In this document: one piece after another, positions 15,130 to 23,914 of the stretch
How the letters are laid out: every line of letters starts with the position of its first letter
How positions within the stretch are numbered: the first letter of the stretch is position 1
Assembly: GCA_963836755.1 (NCBI GenBank)
Contig: CAWIKF010000002.1
Span: 1,984,001-2,048,000 of the forward strand
Direction: 5' to 3'
DNA length: 64,000 nt
Source of the DNA: an uncultured Verrucomicrobiae bacterium
GTDB taxonomy: Bacteria; Verrucomicrobiota; Verrucomicrobiia; Chthoniobacterales; Chthoniobacteraceae
Notes under the pieces: model-generated
Told to the model about the DNA's origin: nothing
Databases searched by the model: none
Seen by the model: the letters and a program-made list of their open reading frames with translations, nothing else
Program-made: the position numbers and the translations under genes

Positions 15130-15339
15130 TCACTCGGCGAAACAGTCGCTGTCGATCTTCTTGATCTCGTATGTGGATACAATGGAGACTCCCAAACTAA
15201 AGTCGATCATCATCTCCGCAAGCTGAGTGCCGTCGATGAGAACAATCTTGCTTCCGATAGTAGAAACGTAGTCGCGGGCGTTGTCCGTGAAGGTGGACGT
15301 AGTAATGTAAATCCCTTTGTTGGCTCGTTGGCCTTGCAC
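15130..15339 (-). pseudogene. mrr: C-terminal fragment of Mrr-type restriction endonuclease (gene cassette)
   Basis: KGIYITTSTFT...IVLIDGTQLAEMMIDFSLGVS...YEIKKIDSDCF is the typical Mrr C-terminus; the N-terminal and catalytic parts are absent. Confidence 0.85.
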
Positions 15340-15348
15340 GGCTTATGC

Positions 15349-15472
15349 GCCTAACGACCCCAAGCTCAGCGACTGCGGAGGCTGGCGCGCTGGCTGCATG
15401 GGGGCGGAAAGGCGGAGGCTGCAAGCAGCCAGCGTGACAGCCGGAGCAGTTCGCTGCAGCGCATGGTTAGGC
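15349..15472 (-). other. attC site (124 bp)
   Basis: Minus strand GCCTAAC ... GTTAGGC with an imperfect internal palindrome (GCAGCGAAC / GTCGCTGAGC); the HNH stop codon lies inside the RYYYAAC box. Confidence 0.9.
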
Positions 15473-16324
15473 CATTTGCTCGAATTCATGGAATCGTCGG
15501 TGCCATTGCAGGTATGCACGTGTGGGCTGTGGTAAGTCGGACAGCTTGGCCGCGGATGGGATGCCGATTGCGTTGCGGTCAGCGAGGGAAAAGTGCGGCG
15601 AAAAGATCATCTCGCCGATGTCCGAGAACGAAATAAGTCCGTGCTCGAACGCAAGGTCGATGTGTCCCGCGAGGATTATGCCATTGTTGGCGTCAAGGCG
15701 TTCGGCGGTGCTAGACTGTGACACACGCTTGATGTGGGCCGCACGCAGAAGGCGTCTATCTCGGCAGCCAGTGACGACGCAAGCAGGGCCACACCGATCC
15801 TCGACCCGTTTTCGCCAGTGTTGTTGCCAGAAACGACGCGAGGAAACCGTTCCAAACGTGGTAATGCTATCGTCTGCTTTCTGAATCTCTTCCGGCGTGA
15901 GTTCTTGCCATGAACGATTTGAATCGGTCTCGCTATCCTCCCAAGGCACCAATGTCCCATCCTGTGCTTTGCGGAACAAACATCCAATGACGTCTGCTAG
16001 GAGGGCGTAATGTTCTTTGTTTGGCTGTTTGACGACGCCATTCTTTTCATCAACGAGAATTGGGAAGCGATTCCGTAAGCCGGTTTTCCTGTCTTCGGTC
16101 CATTCTAGTATTCCGGGAGCCGCCTCAGACGGATCGAACTCTGAAGCCAAGCTCCGCCTAGCAAGTGAAGCAGCGTATGTGAGAGATTCGCGAAGGTATT
16201 TGTCGATTCGCGATCGACCATCGCCCTGAAAAGCCCGGAAATGTCGCTGACACTTGCCAACGGGATCGGTCAAATACGCACCTCGGGCTCCCAACTCTTC
16301 GCATACGTCGTGATACGTGCTCAT
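15467..16324 (-). CDS. HNH endonuclease gene cassette
   Basis: C-terminal CVVTG...LRAAHIK...ERLDANNGIILAGHIDLAFEHGLISF HNH signature; flanked by attC sites; ATG 10 nt after the upstream attC. Confidence 0.88.
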   Translation of the reverse strand: MSTYHDVCEELGARGAYLTDPVGKCQRHFRAFQGDGRSRIDKYLRESLTYAASLARRSLASEFDPSEAAPGILEWTEDRKTGLRNRFPILVDEKNGVVKQPNKEHYALLADVIGCLFRKAQDGTLVPWEDSETDSNRSWQELTPEEIQKADDSITTFGTVSSRRFWQQHWRKRVEDRCGPACVVTGCRDRRLLRAAHIKRVSQSSTAERLDANNGIILAGHIDLAFEHGLISFSDIGEMIFSPHFSLADRNAIGIPSAAKLSDLPQPTRAYLQWHRRFHEFEQMA

Positions 16325-16333
16325 CGGTTATTG

Positions 16334-16435
16334 GCCTAACGAATCCAAGCTCAGCGACGGAGGCTGGCGACGCAAGACGAAACCACGAAAGAGACCCCAC
16401 CGCCAGCCTCTGTTCGCTGGAGCGCGTGGTTAGGT
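16334..16435 (-). other. attC site (102 bp)
   Basis: Minus strand ACCTAAC ... GTTAGGC, internal GAGGCTGGCG/CGCCAGCCTC stem, ends shared with the 15349-15472 site. Confidence 0.9.
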
Positions 16436-16524
16436 GCCGTGGGCTTCGATTGGAGCGTGAAGATAGAACTCATTAAATCGTTCAATTTGGCTTGGACGCT
16501 ATCAAACCCAGATTCTCTCGTTGA

Positions 16525-16822
16525 CCCGACTCCGCTCGCGTCGCGCTACCGCTTCCGCATGAAGCTGGTGGGTGTGCAAAGCGAATACCAGCTCGCGGCG
16601 AGTTCTCCCGCGCCGATGGCGGCGATCGCCGGCGTGCTGCCGGGGCAGACGGTGGAGATCATCGTGCAGGCGGTGAATGGTTCGCTGCAAAGCGTGCCGA
16701 GCGCGAGTGTGACTTTCACCGTGCTTTTGCCGGTGAAGGCGGCGGAAGCGCCGGCTGCAAAAGTGGCGCTGGAGCTGCCTGCGCTGGCGACGAATGGGAA
16801 CGGGAAGCACAGCAGGGTTTAG
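16525..16822 (+). pseudogene. 5'-truncated fibronectin-type-III-like protein fragment
   Basis: GVLPGQTVEIIVQAVNGSLQSVPSASVTF FN3-like strands; composition changes abruptly near 16525; followed by a terminator. Left boundary approximate. Confidence 0.5.
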
Positions 16823-16859
16823 GCTTCGACATTAGGATTCACGCAGTTTTTTCCAATGG

Positions 16860-16897
16860 AAGGGGCGGCCGCGCATGATGGCGCTGCCGCCCCTTTT
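16860..16897 (+). terminator. Rho-independent terminator
   Basis: AAGGGGCGGC ... GCCGCCCCTTTT stem-loop with U-tract. Confidence 0.65.
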
Positions 16898-17028
16898 CCT
16901 TGTCCAGACGTGTCCCTCCAGCTCACGGAAATTGCACGGATGGGATCCATGGATCCGAAGGGGATCGCCGATCAAGCTTTGACTTGGAAAAACTATTTGC
17001 GCGAGGGGCGCGGCGTGGGGCGGGGGGA

Positions 17029-17103
17029 TGGTGCGCGATACAGGGTTCGAACCTGTGACCCCCTCCGTGTCAGGGAGGTGCTCTACCACTGAGCTAACCG
17101 CGC
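17029..17103 (-). tRNA. tRNA-Val(GAC)
   Basis: GCGCGGT/ATCGCGC acceptor stem, anticodon loop CTGACAC, GGTTCGAACCC T-arm, encoded CCA. Confidence 0.97.
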
Positions 17104-17222: not shown

Positions 17223-18002
17223 TTACGACTTTGCTTCGCCGTGGCGCTTTAGAAATTCATCCGCGAGATCGCGGTAAGCAGTCGCGCCGAGGCCGTTAGG
17301 ATCGTATTCCATGATGGTTTTGCCAAAGCTCGGCGCTTCGCCGAGGCGCACCGTGCGCGGGATCATCGTCTGATAAACGGTTTCGCCAAAATGCTTGCGC
17401 ACTTCGGCGACGACTTGCTGGCTGAGGTTTGTGCGGCTGTCGTGCATGGTCATGACGATGCCGTGAAGAGTGAGGGCGGAATTCGCGCCGGACGCTCGAA
17501 TTTGCTCGATGACTTGCACGATTTTTGAAAGGCCCTCGAGCGCGAAGTATTCGCACTGGAGCGGGACGAGGAGCTCGTCGGCGGCGGCGAGCGCATTGGT
17601 CATGAGGATGCCAAGCGACGGCGGGCAATCGAATAGCACATAGTCAAACGCCGCATCCTCGCGCAGCGGCCAGAGGACTTCGCGCAGCCGCGTGAGGTGA
17701 TGGTCGCCGCGCGCGACTTCGATTTCTGCTCCGGCGAGGTCGAGATCGGCGGGGACGATGGAAAGCGTCTCGAAGCGCGTGGGGAGAATTTGTTTCGCGA
17801 CGGGGCCCTGGTCGACGAGCGGCTTGTAAATGCTGTGCCCGTCCACGCCCTCGACGCCGAGCGCGCTGGTGGCGTTGCCCTGCGGGTCGAGGTCGATGAG
17901 GAGGACGAATTGCCCCTTGAGCGCGAGGCAGGCGGCGAGGTTGACGGCGGTCGTGGTCTTGCCGACGCCTCCTTTTTGATTGGCCACGGCGATGGTTTTC
18001 AT
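17223..18002 (-). CDS. parA: ParA/Soj family ATPase
   Basis: NQKGGVGKTTT deviant Walker A, IDLDPQGNAT, DCPPSLG, PLQCEYFALEGL, EAPSFG. Confidence 0.95.
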   Translation of the reverse strand: MKTIAVANQKGGVGKTTTAVNLAACLALKGQFVLLIDLDPQGNATSALGVEGVDGHSIYKPLVDQGPVAKQILPTRFETLSIVPADLDLAGAEIEVARGDHHLTRLREVLWPLREDAAFDYVLFDCPPSLGILMTNALAAADELLVPLQCEYFALEGLSKIVQVIEQIRASGANSALTLHGIVMTMHDSRTNLSQQVVAEVRKHFGETVYQTMIPRTVRLGEAPSFGKTIMEYDPNGLGATAYRDLADEFLKRHGEAKS

Positions 18003-18048
18003 TTCTGGAAAGTCTGCGAAACTAGTCGTTCGAAAAATATTGTCCAAC

Positions 18049-20920
18049 ATGAGTGGAGTCGAGCTGAGCGAAAAATTGCTGATGGATGCGGGCGGCTGGC
18101 AGGCGATGAAGCTGGCGCGCGCCCTCTGCGACGCCGGCCGCGTGCTGAGCGCGCATTATGCGCCGCCGGTATTGAAGGGCGTGGTGCAGGACGCGGGCGC
18201 GGAGTTTCGCTCGGGGCTCAAAATCGTGACGCGGACGAATGTGGAAAATATCTGCGGCTGCCGCGCGTCGCGCGAATGGGGGACGATCTGCGCGCATTCG
18301 CTGGCGGTGGGATTGAAGGTGTTGCGGCCAAAGTTGGAGAGAGCGGGGGAGCCTACGGTCTCCGCGCCGAAAGCTGCGGCGGTGATGAGCGGGCCGTTTT
18401 TTTCAACGACGGAAGCCGGCGAGCCGATCGCGCTGCACGTGATTTTGTCGCCGAATTTCCAGGCGGCATGGGAGAAGGATCAGGTGATGGTCGGCGCGGA
18501 AGTCGAGCAGGACGGCGGGCGGATTTTGATTCACGCGCTCGATGCGAAGAAAACTTTTCGCGCGGCGCCGGAAGATTTGCGGGTGATCGAAAAACTGCGC
18601 GAACTCAATGGCGGCGCGCTTTCCGGCATGATGATTCTGCCGCGCGAAAAAGTTCTCGAGCTGCTCGAAAGTCTTGCGCGGGCACCCACGCGTGACTTTT
18701 GGAAAAACTGCGCCAGCCGATGTGGAAGCGCTGCTGAAATCGCTGCGGCCAATCAAAGAGGACCCGCGAATTCCAGACCCCCATGTGGACGCGGAACCGG
18801 CTGCGCCGGAATTTTCGCTTACGCTGGAAGGTTCGCTCAATCATCTGACGGGGCGGCTGCAGGCGACTTACGGCCAGCGGGTCGTCACCGTCGGTCTCAC
18901 GCCGGATGCTGACACTTTCACATTTCCCGATCCCAAAAATGCATCGCGCCGCCTTTCGCGAAATCTCGCTGCCGAGCACGCGGCATTGGAGCGGCTCACT
19001 CGCCACGGCTTCGCAGGCCCGGATACGACCGGGAATTTTACGCTCAAGCGCGAACATTCGATCCTGACATTTCTCGCACAGGAGCTGCCGCAATTAGAGC
19101 GGGAGTGGGCAGTTACGATCGGCGCGCGTTTTACAAACGTGACGCGCGACATCGAGCGCATCACGCCGCGCTTCGACATTCAGCGGTCGGGCCAGGATTG
19201 GTTCGAAATGAGCGTGCATTTGGAAGCGCCGGGCGGGCAAACCTTTTCTGCCGCTGACATCCAGCGCCTACTGCAATCGGGGCAAAATCATGTTCGCCTA
19301 AAAAATAATCGGCTGGCCGTTTTTGATGCGAAGATGCTCGATGAATTCCAAAACGTCCTCGTCGATTGCGCGCCGGAACAGCGGCAGCCCGGCCTCTATC
19401 GCGTGAACCGAATCCATGCCGGCTACATCGACGCGGTGATTGGCGATACGCGCGTCACCGGTGCGGCCGAGTGGAAGGAATGGGCGGCGACGCAACGGCA
19501 GATGAAGGCGCCGCAGCCGATCCCGCTCGGCCAGCTCGACGAGGTGCTGCGCCCTTATCAGAAGCAGGGCGTTTACTGGATGAACTTTCTCGCCGAGAAT
19601 GGATCGGGCGGAATCCTCGCCGACGAAATGGGGCTTGGGAAAACTTTGCAAGCGCTTGCTTTTTTGACGACGCGTGGCCGACCGTCGCTGATCGTCTGCC
19701 CATCTTCGCTCGTTTACAATTGGCAGCGAGAGGCGGAACGTTTTACGCCGGAGCTGCGAACTTTGGCGATCGCCGGGGCAAGTCGCAGCGCTCTCTACGG
19801 AAAGATCAACGAGTCAGATCTCGTGATCACAAGCTACCCGCTGCTTCGCCGAGATTCGGACCGCTACAGAACCTTTGAATTTGCGGCCGTTATTTTGGAC
19901 GAAGCACAGCACATCAAAAATCCTGAGACGCAAAACGCGCAAGCTGCCACGAGCCTGCGCGCAGAAACTCGCTTCGTGCTCACGGGCACGCCGATGGAGA
20001 ATTCGGTCCGTGATTTGTGGTCGATCATGCATTTTGTGAGGCCGGGCTATCTCGGCTCGCATGAAGATTTTCGCGAGCGATATGAGAAACCGATTTCCGG
20101 AAGGGATCGAGAAGCCCAAAACCGGCTGGCGAAACGGATCAAGCCATTTTTGTTGCGCAGATTGAAGAAAATGGTTGCCACGGAATTGCCGGACAAGATT
20201 GAGCAAGTTACTTATTGCGAGCTGACTAACGCTCAGTTGGATATCTACAACCAGATCCTGAAGGAGAGCCGTGCCCAAATCGAAGTCGCGAGCGGAGAGA
20301 AGAATGAAGGCCGACTGAAAATGGTGATGCTGACGGCATTATTGCGCCTCAGGCAGGCCTGCTGCGATCTTCGGCTCTTAAAGCTGGCAACAGATCCCGC
20401 CAACTACTCGGCGAAGCTCGAGTTACTCGACGAACTGCTGCGTGAAGCGATCGACGGCGGACATCGGGTCCTGATTTTTAGCCAGTTCGTTACCATGCTC
20501 CAGCTTCTCCGCAAACATCTTGAGAAGAGTGACACTTCATATTGTTACCTCGACGGCTCAACGAAAAACCGCGGTGAAGAGGTGGACCGATTCCAGAACA
20601 ATCCTGAAATTCCCGTTTTTCTGATCAGCCTCAAAGCCGGCGGCGTCGGCCTCAACCTTACGGGCGCCGACACGGTGATTCATTTCGATCCATGGTGGAA
20701 TCCCGCGGTGGAATCGCAGGCTACCGATCGCGCGCACCGACTCGGCCAAAAAAACATCGTGACGTCATTTAAGCTCATCACGAAAGGCACCGTCGAAGAA
20801 AAGATTCTCAATCTGCAGCAAAAGAAGCGAGACATCATAAACTCGACTATGGGCGATGAACTGGAGATGTCGGCGCTATCACCGGCGGAAATTGCATCAC
20901 TACTCGACGTAGAAGATTGA
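18049..20920 (+). pseudogene. SWIM zinc-finger/SNF2 family helicase with a single frameshift near 18675 (real lesion or sequencing error)
   Basis: Frame 1 holds a SWIM motif (CGC...CAH); frame 2 continues RGHPRVTFG to LADEMGLGKT, DEAQ, LTGTPMEN and QATDRAHRLGQ. Removing one base joins them. Confidence 0.8.
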
Positions 20921-20979: not shown

Positions 20980-21007
20980 AGTTTATATTACATATAGTCA
21001 AACGATT
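20980..21007 (-). other. Left dif-like site (XerD arm and spacer intact, XerC arm degenerate)
   Basis: Minus strand AATCGTTTGAC-TATATG-TAATATAAACT. Confidence 0.6.
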
Positions 21008-21404
21008 TATACGAGTTATAGGTAGATAAAGGCTATAAAAAACGTTCGCAAGGTGCTGGAGATAAGAGAGATAAACGACGCGAAAAAAAATCGAAGTTAT
21101 AGGAAAATAAGGCCGGATTAGAAGCCCTTTTAGAAGCACTTTTCGCGCCTCGATTTTCCACGCCGACTTGCTCACAAACCGGTAGCTCTGGCTTGGCGCC
21201 AGCGCGCGAGCTGATCCGCTTCGCGGCTCGCGCTGCCGCTACCTTCGCTCCGCTCGCAGACTCGCTCCGACGATTTGAGAACAAGCCTTCCAACGTGAGA
21301 AAGAAAGGCTCTGGCACGATCGAAAAGAAGAGTGGGAGAGAAGTCCGCGCAGCTGCGCGCGAGAGAGTCAGACCGAGACCCACGGCAGAGCAGGCGAGAG
21401 AGAA

Positions 21405-21452
21405 AGAGCCAGGACGAAAGATGACCGTCGCAACGAGAGCCAGGACGAAAGA
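21405..21452 (+). repeat. 17-bp direct repeat pair in a purine-rich tract
   Basis: AGAGCCAGGACGAAAGA at 21405-21421 and 21436-21452. Confidence 0.8.
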
Positions 21453-21575
21453 GAAGACGGTCGCGCGGCACGAAAGAAAAGAATGACCCCAGCCCGCCGA
21501 CGGCCTACGGCAACGGGACGGGCTGGGGAACCTTTAGAACACATTTCACGCACGACGACATGTCACACACCATGC

Positions 21576-21716
21576 TCATGCAGTCCCCGTGTTCTCGGTG
21601 ATTGGACGACCACCCTTGGCACCGTTCGAACGGGCAGAGAGACGCTTTTTGGCTGACTTGGCCTTGCCGCCACGCTTACCGATTTGCCTCAGGTATTCGC
21701 GTGTTGCGGGGTGCAT
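21576..21716 (-). CDS. 46-aa basic protein with KGG/GGRP motifs
   Basis: MHPATREYLRQIGKRGGKAKSAKKRLSARSNGAKGGRPITENTGTA; below the ORF-track size cutoff. Confidence 0.65.
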   Translation of the reverse strand: MHPATREYLRQIGKRGGKAKSAKKRLSARSNGAKGGRPITENTGTA

Positions 21717-22030
21717 AAAAGGCGAGTCTGGCCGCTTCGGTTTTCCAACCGACTCAGCTTAAATAGTTTACAAAATGCGAATGCGACGATTTTGGCCAAT
21801 TTTGGGATTTTGCTAAAAGTTCGGTGCAGTTGTTCACATATAGACAAGGAACAGCGTGCGCTATCGCGCTCGCTGGAAACCGCGTAAAAACGCGGGCCGG
21901 AACCCTCTGCGCCGGCCAAAGCTGGCTCCGCGCCGCTCGCCGCTAGCGCGGACTTCGGGACGACGATCGCCAGCGCGAAGCGGCTCCGCAGGGCTCCAAG
22001 GCCACTAGAACGCGGTTTTGCGGAACTCAT
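21689..22030 (-). CDS. Hypothetical protein translationally coupled to the RHH gene (possible decayed rep 5' region)
   Basis: ATGA start/stop overlap with the RHH gene; no recognisable motif. Confidence 0.35.
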   Translation of the reverse strand: MSSAKPRSSGLGALRSRFALAIVVPKSALAASGAEPALAGAEGSGPRFYAVSSERDSARCSLSICEQLHRTFSKIPKLAKIVAFAFCKLFKLSRLENRSGQTRLLCTPQHANT

Positions 22031-22356
22031 GACGCTTCGCCGTGACCTTCGAGCCACAGGCGGATAATCTGCCGCAGAAGCACGGACCGAGTCGGCGGGC
22101 AGAACTGGCGACGGCGGAAATCATCCAGCGCACCGGCCTCGGCCTCAGTCAGCGCAGAGGAGACAATGACCGAGACCTTTTCGAGCTGGGGATTGGCCTT
22201 GGGGCCGCGCTTTTGATCAGGCGGATAGCTGAGAACGGGACTGGAGGTGCCGTTAACGTGCTTGCGAGCGGCGTTTTTGGCACGGATATCGGCGCGGATT
22301 TCCTCAAAGAGCTTGCGCTCCGCAGGAGTATGGAGATTGACGCCACGCCGTCTCAT
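22027..22356 (-). CDS. Ribbon-helix-helix (CopG-like) DNA-binding protein
   Basis: C-terminal VIVSSALTEAEAGALDDFRRRQFCPPTRSVLLRQIIRLWLE fits the strand-helix-turn(RS)-helix pattern. Confidence 0.6.
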   Translation of the reverse strand: MRRRGVNLHTPAERKLFEEIRADIRAKNAARKHVNGTSSPVLSYPPDQKRGPKANPQLEKVSVIVSSALTEAEAGALDDFRRRQFCPPTRSVLLRQIIRLWLEGHGEAS

Positions 22357-22485
22357 TTGAACAAGACGTTGGTGCCGTATACAAACCGGCAAAGAAAAAC
22401 TTTGCTGATTTGCAGAATGTAGACAATTGGCCCGTGGTTGCTGGCTTGGCGGGCGAGTTGGTGGACGGACATGCCACCAATCTGG

Positions 22486-22513
22486 ATTTTATATTACATA
22501 TATTGTATGATGT
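22486..22513 (-). other. Right dif-like site (near-complete Xer site)
   Basis: Minus strand ACATCATACAA-TATATG-TAATATAAAAT, 11-6-11 layout resembling canonical dif. Confidence 0.7.
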
Positions 22514-22589
22514 TATTGTTATGTGCTAATGGCACCGCGGCTTACCGTTTTGTGAATAACTAGTGAATGAAACCCTGTGCAGGTTCGCG

Positions 22590-23051
22590 CTAGAGTTTCA
22601 TCTCCCACTCCGCGAGCAAATCCAGAAACCCTGTGGAGGTGCTCGCGGTGCGCAATGCGGATTCCGCGGCGCTCTCTTTGAAGATTCGAGCCAAAGCTCC
22701 GATGATGCGCAGATAATCTGCAGCCATCGCGACTGGCACGCCGATCACAAAAATGTAGTGAATGTTGTTCTTCGTATTCGGGAATGCGATTCCACGCACC
22801 GATCGGCCGACACTAACGACCATGCTCGTTACAAAATTGGTGCGGGCATGCGGGATGCAAATCTCAAACTCGTCGCCGGCAGCGACGCATGGATTCTTGC
22901 TCTTCAGGCTGTTGTAAAATGCGTTCCAGTCACGCACGCGTTCATCTTCTTTTAAAAGCGAGGCGACTTTGAAAATCGCCTCCTCCTGATTCGTCTCCTT
23001 CAAATCGATATCGATGTGCCGGGGCTGAAGAATGCTGGAAATCGTGATCAT
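22590..23051 (-). CDS. PTS sugar transporter subunit IIA domain protein (PtsN-like)
   Basis: ICIPHAR phospho-His motif, YLRIIGALARIF. Confidence 0.88.
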   Translation of the reverse strand: MITISSILQPRHIDIDLKETNQEEAIFKVASLLKEDERVRDWNAFYNSLKSKNPCVAAGDEFEICIPHARTNFVTSMVVSVGRSVRGIAFPNTKNNIHYIFVIGVPVAMAADYLRIIGALARIFKESAAESALRTASTSTGFLDLLAEWEMKL

Positions 23052-23914
23052 ATGGCAGTGCCGCTCCACTTCAGTTTCTGCCGGAGCACTTCGGAAAAAG
23101 TGAGATCCGGTAGCATGGCGAGCGGCAGCGTATGCTTTGCTTTGGTGATCCGGATGATGTCGCCGCCTTTTATTTTGAGCAGCTCCTGACCATCGACGGT
23201 CAAAAAAACATCCTGCTGTCCGGTGCATGGACGAACGGAAATCCGCGATTGGTCGCTGACGATGACCGAGCGGTTTGTCAGCACATGAGGGCAGATCGGT
23301 GTGATGACAAATACGCCGCAGTCCGGCATCAAGATCGGTCCGCCTGCTGACAAAGAATAAGCTGTGGAGCCGGTCGGCGTGGAAATCACCAATCCATCGG
23401 CGTTGTATTCGGTAAGCACATTTCCGTCGATCCGCGTTTCGAGCCGGATCAAGCGCGACATCTCGCCGCGGCTGATGACAGCGTCATTCAATCCAATGCG
23501 CCGGCCTGTAATGCGGCCACCGCTTTCGATCTCCACTTCGAGCAATGTCCGCTGGCTCAGGATGAAATTTCCCGCGACGATGCAGTCGACCGCGAGCGCG
23601 TGCGAGGAGGAGCTGACGCAGGTCAAAAATCCCAGCGAGCCGAGATTGATGCCGAAGATCGGTTTCAGCCTCTCGCCCAAATCATGAAGCACTTGCAAAA
23701 TCGTCCCGTCCCCGCCCAGCACGACAAGAATTTCGCACGCTGCACCGAGATCATGCGAGGAGCCGGCAGATTTCTCGCCGATCAATTCCGCCGTTTTCGT
23801 TTCGAAAAAAATCGTTGCGTTGTGGCGATGAAATTCGGCCTGCAACTTTTTCACCAACTCCGCTGCACCCGGCTTCCCCGCATGCGCGATGATCCCAATC
23901 AATGGCGCAGACAT
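23048..23914 (-). CDS. nadK: NAD(+) kinase
   Basis: GGDGT, GINLGSLGFL, LND, DGLVISTPTGSTAYSLSAGGP. Confidence 0.96.
   Translation of the reverse strand: MSAPLIGIIAHAGKPGAAELVKKLQAEFHRHNATIFFETKTAELIGEKSAGSSHDLGAACEILVVLGGDGTILQVLHDLGERLKPIFGINLGSLGFLTCVSSSSHALAVDCIVAGNFILSQRTLLEVEIESGGRITGRRIGLNDAVISRGEMSRLIRLETRIDGNVLTEYNADGLVISTPTGSTAYSLSAGGPILMPDCGVFVITPICPHVLTNRSVIVSDQSRISVRPCTGQQDVFLTVDGQELLKIKGGDIIRITKAKHTLPLAMLPDLTFSEVLRQKLKWSGTAI

Follow-up and report, generated by a model that had tools for sequence, protein, structure and literature searches.

Organization of the locus

The window, that is, the whole 64,000-nt stretch of DNA that was analysed, corresponds to C2:1,984,001-2,048,000 of a 3,183,637-bp genome, and its features of interest lie in and around a 1,506-bp unit between an SNF2 helicase gene and a PTS EIIA gene:

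18674-20920, plus strand: SNF2 helicase gene, left host flank, outside the element (Pfam PF00176, 1.2e-71; the orthologue in G002 is 74% identical)
20980-21007, minus strand: left site, attL, comprising the host XerD arm (20980-20990), a 6-bp spacer (20991-20996) and an element-derived arm (20997-21007) (matrix scores)
21161-21301, no strand assigned: conserved non-coding motif of about 140 nt, candidate rolling-circle origin acting in cis (homology; position before Rep genes)
21487-21528, minus strand: stable hairpin followed by a T-rich run, terminator-like (z -4.66)
21576-21716, minus strand: 46-aa basic open reading frame (ORF present)
21689-22030, minus strand: 113-aa ORF ('coupled ORF') overlapping the stop codon of the ribbon-helix-helix gene (ORF list)
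22027-22356, minus strand: 109-aa ribbon-helix-helix (RHH) protein bearing a KRGPK arm and a helix at its N terminus, the marker of the element family (profile and structure)
22486-22513, minus strand: right site, attR, a putative regenerated dif comprising the element-side XerD arm (22486-22496), the spacer (22497-22502) and the host XerC arm (22503-22513) (26 of 28 positions identical to the empty site of G002)
22590-23060, minus strand: PTS EIIA gene, right host flank, outside the element (Pfam PF00359, 2.3e-19; the orthologue in G002 is 72% identical and follows the empty dif)

The original prediction held that an exact 15-bp direct repeat brackets an integrase-free insert between two genes, and all of this was borne out. 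A scan of the whole genome found the repeat only at 20982 and 22488, 1,506 bp apart, and the rest of the genome contains no place within 8 mismatches of either 28-bp site; the left and right copies differ at one of the 17 positions that make up the XerD arm and the spacer. Pfam identified the two flanking genes as those for an SNF2 helicase and PTS EIIA, and none of the insert ORFs matched an integrase in Pfam, NCBIfam or PHROG. Rfam gave no match, and in the phylum sample 2 of 401 gave a match, namely the genome itself and one weak, unrelated case. Farther to the left, beyond a tRNA-Val gene (about 17030-17100), one ORF resembling HNH proteins and a second, truncated one resembling restriction endonucleases occupy window positions 15130-16900; together they may form a small island linked to the tRNA gene, 4 kb from dif.

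The right-hand site and the chromosomal dif

The right site is canonical by position weight matrix. The predicted match of the joined outer flanks to the Bacillus subtilis dif, at 22 of 28 positions, was confirmed by a hand count against the sequence printed in PMC3025954. The supplement of the same paper predicts a dif for Methylacidiphilum, to which the right site is identical at 23 of 28 positions with an identical spacer, and this match therefore fixes which arm belongs to XerD and which to XerC. Of 401 genomes of the order, 115 contained the pattern of XerD arm plus spacer, in most cases once (7 matches for the reversed control), and 150 contained that of spacer plus XerC arm (control, 0); four named MAGs with relatives belong to the Chthoniobacterales.

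The location of the site in the chromosome agrees with its sequence. Cumulative GC skew has its maximum at 1.972 Mb, on a plateau, and octamers that we take to be KOPS-like change strand between C2 positions 1,995,978 and 2,010,425, an interval that includes the site at 2,006,486; dnaA lies 1.66 Mb from it in the 3.18-Mb genome. A better dif elsewhere at the skew switch would have spoken against the original prediction, and none was found in the genome. The host XerD and XerC frames are intact and an FtsK gene is present; each recombinase scored best with its own NCBIfam model, below the equivalog cut-offs (XerD, 328.7 against 329.6; XerC, 311.5 against 335.15). By its sequence and position, we assign the right site (22486-22513) as the chromosomal dif.

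Because a conserved DnaA-box-like word lies beyond the site and a parA gene is nearby, a relation to oriC was also considered, and it was ruled out by the position of dnaA and by the KOPS-like polarity. The word itself (10 bp, window 22551-22560, about 37 bp past the dif XerC arm), which resembles a DnaA box, is conserved in many families of the order; in G028, it occurs several times past the XerC arm. The parA/soj gene (window 17223-18050) is 3 kb from dif, so that it lies at the terminus and not close to the origin. In another genome (G003, L023), dif has the opposite orientation relative to the SNF2 and PTS EIIA genes, with about 1.5 kb of other DNA between it and the latter gene.

The empty site and the anatomy of the junctions

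An empty site in relatives had been proposed as a check, and one was found in a genome of the same genus (G002), where the SNF2 gene, a single dif and the PTS EIIA gene follow one another in a row. The SNF2 stop codon and the XerD arm are 62 bp apart at this empty site; here, 59 bp separate the stop codon from the left site. The sequence on the far side of the XerC arm aligns between the two genomes as well. Therefore, the left site consists of the host XerD arm, the spacer and a foreign arm, and the right site of the element's XerD arm, the spacer and the host XerC arm. In attL, XerD arm plus spacer scored 30.2 with the matrix and the XerC arm -31.7; the element-derived arm (20997-21007) has no likeness to an XerC site. 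On this comparison we regard the 1,506-bp unit as an insertion into dif.

The host flank motif before attL also precedes dif in three other genomes (G001, G014 and G018). In G001, the other genome of the genus, a half-site of the same kind at the SNF2 junction is followed by a gene for an HUH Rep (PF23343, 2.7e-7) and then by the end of the contig, from which we conclude that this genome carries a different, evidently Rep-bearing element at the same junction.

The RHH protein and the remaining cargo

The cargo had been described as an RHH protein, a coupled ORF, a 46-aa basic protein and several hairpins. The first of these is well backed by the predicted structure and by structural matches. 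The 109-aa protein had no match in Pfam, NCBIfam or PHROG, a word-based protein search with the single sequence returned only itself and Foldseek found nothing; its AlphaFold model (pLDDT 84.5) does contain the predicted strand-helix-helix fold, and residues 59-109 align with NikR (Z 5.7, rmsd 1.6, 46 residues) and also with PutA (Z 5.5), AmrZ, Arc and others. These structural matches have Z values below 8, yet nearly all of the 50 matches listed are RHH proteins, and the Atlas lead for the protein was RHH_7 (0.90). A profile built from four RHH sequences gave 33 matches among 1.84 billion proteins (a 50% cluster library), of which 27 were kept after six repeat proteins, with 4-9 matched stretches, had been dropped before alignment. 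The 10 family proteins that were looked up are singletons, named 'hypothetical' at most, and several contigs of other family members are 0.8-1.4 kb long. Homologues are encoded in three other dif inserts. Operators for the RHH protein that repeat the att core inside the units were considered and found no support, the best word ranking only 71st of 512.

The other two predicted genes fared less well, as neither has a homologue. For the 113-aa ORF there was none at E 0.1 and no PHROG match, and the elements of relatives have a zinc-finger ORF or a Rep gene at its position; it is probably not a gene. For the 46-aa basic ORF, the searches made returned no homologue or family, and its status as a gene is unsupported by sequence comparison.

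Two of the predicted hairpins hold. None of 200 shuffles folded as well as the hairpin at 21487-21528, which the terminator scan missed, and the hairpin adjoining attR has a z of -2.2 against shuffles. Neither of the two GC-rich stretches (21161-21301 and 21895-22010) folds better than its shuffles.

Relatives of the element at dif

As anticipated, relatives of the RHH gene were found beside similar sites, among them a circle-like contig and a Rep-bearing form. The 401 genomes of the order contain six strong matches and one weak match to the RHH family; all six strong ones lie on the XerD side of dif and are oriented away from it, unlike the weak one. In two further genomes and one metagenome contig, the RHH gene is likewise beside a dif-type site. 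Thus all nine strong homologues with DNA context adjoin such sites, where three of the nine come from loci fetched for their dif, one is the genome studied here, and five were found by protein search alone.

The contig L122 (MWVZ01014533.1) is 1,354 bp long with a 127-nt terminal repeat and can therefore be read as a 1,227-bp circle, although the repeat could also, less readily, come from a tandem array. It contains an RHH gene, a small zinc-finger ORF and a single XerD-arm-plus-spacer site, with no Rep-like ORF, and its half-dif is about 130 bp upstream of the RHH gene, the same geometry as in the insert here. L125 is a Rep-less unit of 1,380 bp at an SNF2-dif junction with the layout of L122. 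In L126 the RHH gene is immediately followed by an HUH Rep gene, and the DNA is 74% identical to L125 over 507 bp; thus, Rep-plus and Rep-minus forms of one module exist. Rep-less units of 1.2-1.5 kb recur independently, in G000, G217, G242, L125 and G400. In G196 (L121:7569-8610), an RHH homologue lies 109 bp from dif without a second site and is followed by a two-gene, toxin-antitoxin-like pair.

Two members of the RHH family had no match in PLSDB or INPHARED, and viral contigs gave no match to the RHH protein, two Rep queries or the 140-nt motif. The att pattern was found in viral contigs at 116 loci, mostly AT-rich chance matches (two have a G+C of at least 44%), and none of the 116 showed likeness to RHH or Rep. 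In sequencing runs, pieces of the insert, identical or diverged, were present in two soil runs of one study, the best of which is possibly the source sample. The four runs had low cover, leaving the RHH gene and the right junction uncovered; they yielded no junction-spanning contig and are uninformative on excision. None of the runs listed with the insert was of RNA.

The 140-nt motif

The motif at 21161-21301 occurs in 22 of 151 genomes of the family, with one copy in the genome itself, and also in L125 (E 5.8e-8); it is absent from L122 at E 0.1. Among 29 copies that were fetched, seven precede an HUH Rep homologue (four of these seven were the source of the Rep queries, and two of the other three carry kin of the L126 Rep), and one is in another dif insert (G400, 1,230 bp). 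The remaining fetched copies have neither a Rep gene nor a dif insert within 1.5 kb, so that 22 of the 29 are without a Rep homologue. Homologues of the L126 Rep adjoin the motif in two other genomes, and in several genomes the motif precedes a Rep gene within small elements, some with tRNA-like ends. Eight of 32 predicted pairs covary, and the fold energy is no better than that of shuffles. An interpretation as a MITE was rejected, as homology passes the inverted repeat in 5 of 10 aligned copies and the genome itself has only one copy. A replication origin is the likeliest of the candidate functions suggested by these comparisons. No Rep, Zot or XafT-like gene was found in the genome, which is 96% complete, so no helper is in sight.

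Four small HUH-Rep elements with tRNA-like ends (L024, L026, L028 and L249) have the motif in common with the dif elements. For L024, the Rep family is shared as well (32-37% identity with its counterparts in G001 and G351), so one kind of replicon uses two integration routes.

One-sided sites and arrays across the order

Of the 115 genomes with the XerD-arm pattern, 10 have tandem repeats of that arm on the same strand; among the 150 with the XerC-arm pattern, 0 have tandem repeats of the XerC arm (Fisher p 2e-4, which is overstated, kin not being independent). A matrix scan of the 68 loci, out of 76 fetched, that have one canonical dif found 30 same-strand XerD-arm repeats in 16 loci. All 30 are on the XerD side of dif, none is on the XerC side, and no repeat of spacer plus XerC arm was seen; the loci had been picked from XerD-arm matches, 20 of them for having several, which favours the XerD-arm class. 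In 28 of the 30 inner sites, all 6 bp of the spacer agree with the host dif, family-specific variants included; the way the scan was set up accounts for part of this agreement. Adjacent to the spacer, canonical sites have a T in 64 of 64 cases and inner sites in 5 of 41. From these patterns we conclude that the class of XerD-arm half-sites is apparently the rule in the Chthoniobacterales.

Arrays can extend to about 10 sites in 15 kb (G216). Those of L048 (G216), L041 (G175), L042 (G095), L046 (G351) and L057/L058 (G037) contain between 3 and about 10 half-dif sites on the XerD side of dif, with spacings of 0.2-8 kb; the XerD arms of the inner sites are often partly changed, and the outermost and the last site are canonical. 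The cargo of these loci, which are similar to cassette arrays, includes IS1-like transposase units, kelch-like repeat proteins, small zinc-finger ORFs and HUH Reps. In the dif arrays of six genomes (L043, L046, L048, L052, L055 and L078), an IS1-family transposase gene is accompanied by a small CcdA-like/RHH gene and a small basic ORF. Split sites were observed at L034:5192 and 5924 (G028) and at L049:6622 (G055), where XerD arm plus spacer and a near-perfect XerC arm are separated by 36 nt; the 36 nt hold an inverted repeat, and looping out of the hairpin could form a site. About 2.3 kb from dif on its XerC side, G090 (L081) has a perfect XerC arm without a spacer or XerD arm, the sole candidate seen for a classical XerC-arm element.

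A more far-reaching reading is that of an order-wide, one-sided dif cassette system, in which circles of 0.7-5 kb, many without Rep, would carry att sites without XerC recognition and form arrays of up to about 10 sites, and in which the dif-restricted RHH protein would be a mirror-image counterpart of XafT that helps XerC on the unreadable arm or sets the direction. Taken as a whole, we consider this reading doubtful.

Nature of the insert and alternative explanations

The original prediction interpreted the insert as a tiny Xer-exploiting element, a satellite or a relic of one, and the empty site, the identity of dif and the RHH kin at dif support this. We consider it probable that the insert is a non-autonomous mobile circle (a satellite) integrated at dif by the host XerC/XerD, with XerD acting first; its best reading is that of a rolling-circle satellite or a Rep-deleted derivative. 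As an IMEX, it targets dif, has no recombinase of its own, would rely on the host XerC/XerD and regenerates dif at attR, with a circle known from the L122 homologue only.

From Xer biochemistry, XerD would be expected to bind the good arm of attP and to make the first strand exchange, in the FtsK-activated pathway at the terminus. A good XerD arm and full spacer homology would let the element enter this XerD-first pathway, as can be gathered from PMC9226527, PMC6744903 and PMC5357621. XerC could be held on the foreign arm by protein contacts or cooperation, or replication could finish the junction. The poor XerC arm at attL would then hinder excision, as at the gonococcal island, and attR would keep dimer resolution. 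For the RHH protein, the most probable role is that of an autorepressor or copy-control protein inherited from a Rep-carrying ancestor, and the 140-nt motif is most likely the origin at which a Rep supplied in trans would copy the circle.

The same integration route could instead have left a dead relic, an autonomous RHH-plus-Rep mini-element that lost its Rep after integrating and is no longer mobilised, which is possible, though we think it rather unlikely. Such a relic would explain why no Rep directly follows the motif, where relatives have one, why a helper was not found in the genome and why the ORFs other than RHH are without homologues, and the RHH gene beside dif in G196, which lacks a second site, would represent a decayed state. 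It accords poorly with the intact state of both att sites and of the RHH frame, with the independent recurrence of Rep-less 1.2-1.5-kb units, one of them a Rep-less circle, and with the diverged pieces in another soil sample.

Improbable, in our judgement, is that recombination does not depend on the XerC/XerD pair, and that XerD alone (acting on both arms, or making one exchange followed by replication) or a helper tyrosine recombinase acts on the half-site. The 41 inner sites were also scored for an XerC arm displaced by 1-4 bp and did no better than shuffles, so such a shift is not supported; this failure of the inner arms against the XerC matrix (offsets -1 to 4) is what an XerD-only route would predict, and the genome has seven further integrase-family matches. 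The inner arms also slightly beat shuffles against the inverted XerD arm (5 of 300 shuffles, offset 1), but this signal is weak and comes from one of 12 tests; moreover, the RHH units are without an integrase, and the identity of 28 of 30 inner spacers to the host dif spacer would be expected with two exchanges. That there is no mobile element, and that part of dif was locally duplicated with unrelated DNA between, is very improbable, as the G+C of the insert (55.5%) is near that of the genome (58%) but the empty site of G002, the homologous units at dif in other families and the circular form with one attP all speak against it.

Relation to known dif elements

Among known systems, a satellite integrated through the XerD arm can be compared with several elements that use dif, as they are described in the papers cited here. 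Like the insert, the TLC-phi satellite of Vibrio cholerae is small and sits at dif, has full spacer homology and one bad arm, regenerates dif and comes first in arrays (PMC6744903, PMC9226527, PMC5357621). In TLC-phi, however, the XerC arm is kept, the XerD arm is lost and XafT (DUF3653) is encoded, whereas the arms are reversed here; DUF3653/XafT (PF12375) had no match in the insert ORFs or in the genome. TLC also carries its own replication gene. The gonococcal genetic island is likewise flanked by dif and a half-degenerate copy, and its stability is attributed to FtsK not stopping at the bad site (PMC5357621); it is 57 kb long, encodes a T4SS and is degenerate on the XerD side, in contrast to the XerC side in the 1.5-kb insert. 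Prophages of Enterogokushovirus and of Bacteroidetes microviruses are small rolling-circle elements without an integrase that use dif via XerCD (PMC7062461, PMC3091885), but unlike the insert they span 4-6 kb and have capsid and Rep genes. The gokushovirus dif varies in the spacer and XerD arm, and deletion of the XerC half blocked integration in E. coli (PMC7062461); the Bacteroidetes microvirus prophages have 13-bp repeats (PMC3091885). A CTX-type inverted second att site was not seen: neither site has an inverted partner in the insert, and the folds on the junction side leave the arms unpaired. Context for dif arrays is given in PMC9765430 and in the 2026 preprint 10.64898/2026.06.12.731946.

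The original prediction had stressed that the degenerate arm is that of XerC, opposite to the TLC and gonococcal island sites. The degeneracy itself stands, but it is not unique, as PMC12715192 reports dif-type double-jelly-roll prophages (PM2, Cr39582) with a 17-bp 'left-armed' attP. Read from the dif formula of that paper and the 17-mer of PM2, 'left-armed' would mean XerD arm plus spacer. Because such 17-bp attP sites have been reported for PM2-like phages, an att design without an XerC arm was already known. The PM2-like prophages share with the insert the lack of an integrase, an attP of one 11-bp arm plus spacer, a small regulator gene beside attP and tandem arrays at dif; they differ from it in being phages of gamma-proteobacteria, 13 kb long, that carry capsid genes together with an RstR/XafT module, compared with 1.5 kb and one RHH gene in Verrucomicrobiota. 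The insert ORFs tested had no PHROG or Pfam match to a double-jelly-roll virion or P15/P16 module, and no Rep or XafT was among them.

In the full-text literature searched, subscription papers being outside its scope, we found neither a description of dif elements from Verrucomicrobiota nor one of the RHH family. What stands out is the size, the phylum, the one-sidedness of the att sites throughout the order, and a marker protein that has so far been seen at dif alone; our results would extend Xer hijacking to Verrucomicrobiota in about the smallest form thinkable, with 1.2-1.5 kb, a single gene and one half of a dif. Among IMEXs with a bad arm, those studied biochemically (TLC and the gonococcal island) lose the XerD arm, and recombination without an XerC arm is not worked out in the literature examined. 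Dozens of natural site variants, together with the empty site, a circular form and pairs of units with and without Rep, make this question directly testable. In addition, the arrays mark dif as a point of gene entry in an abundant soil lineage. Finally, two viral contigs of moderate G+C (L145 and L159) have an XerD-arm-plus-spacer match without an XerC arm, in one of them near the contig end, and are possible phages of the XerD-arm att class.
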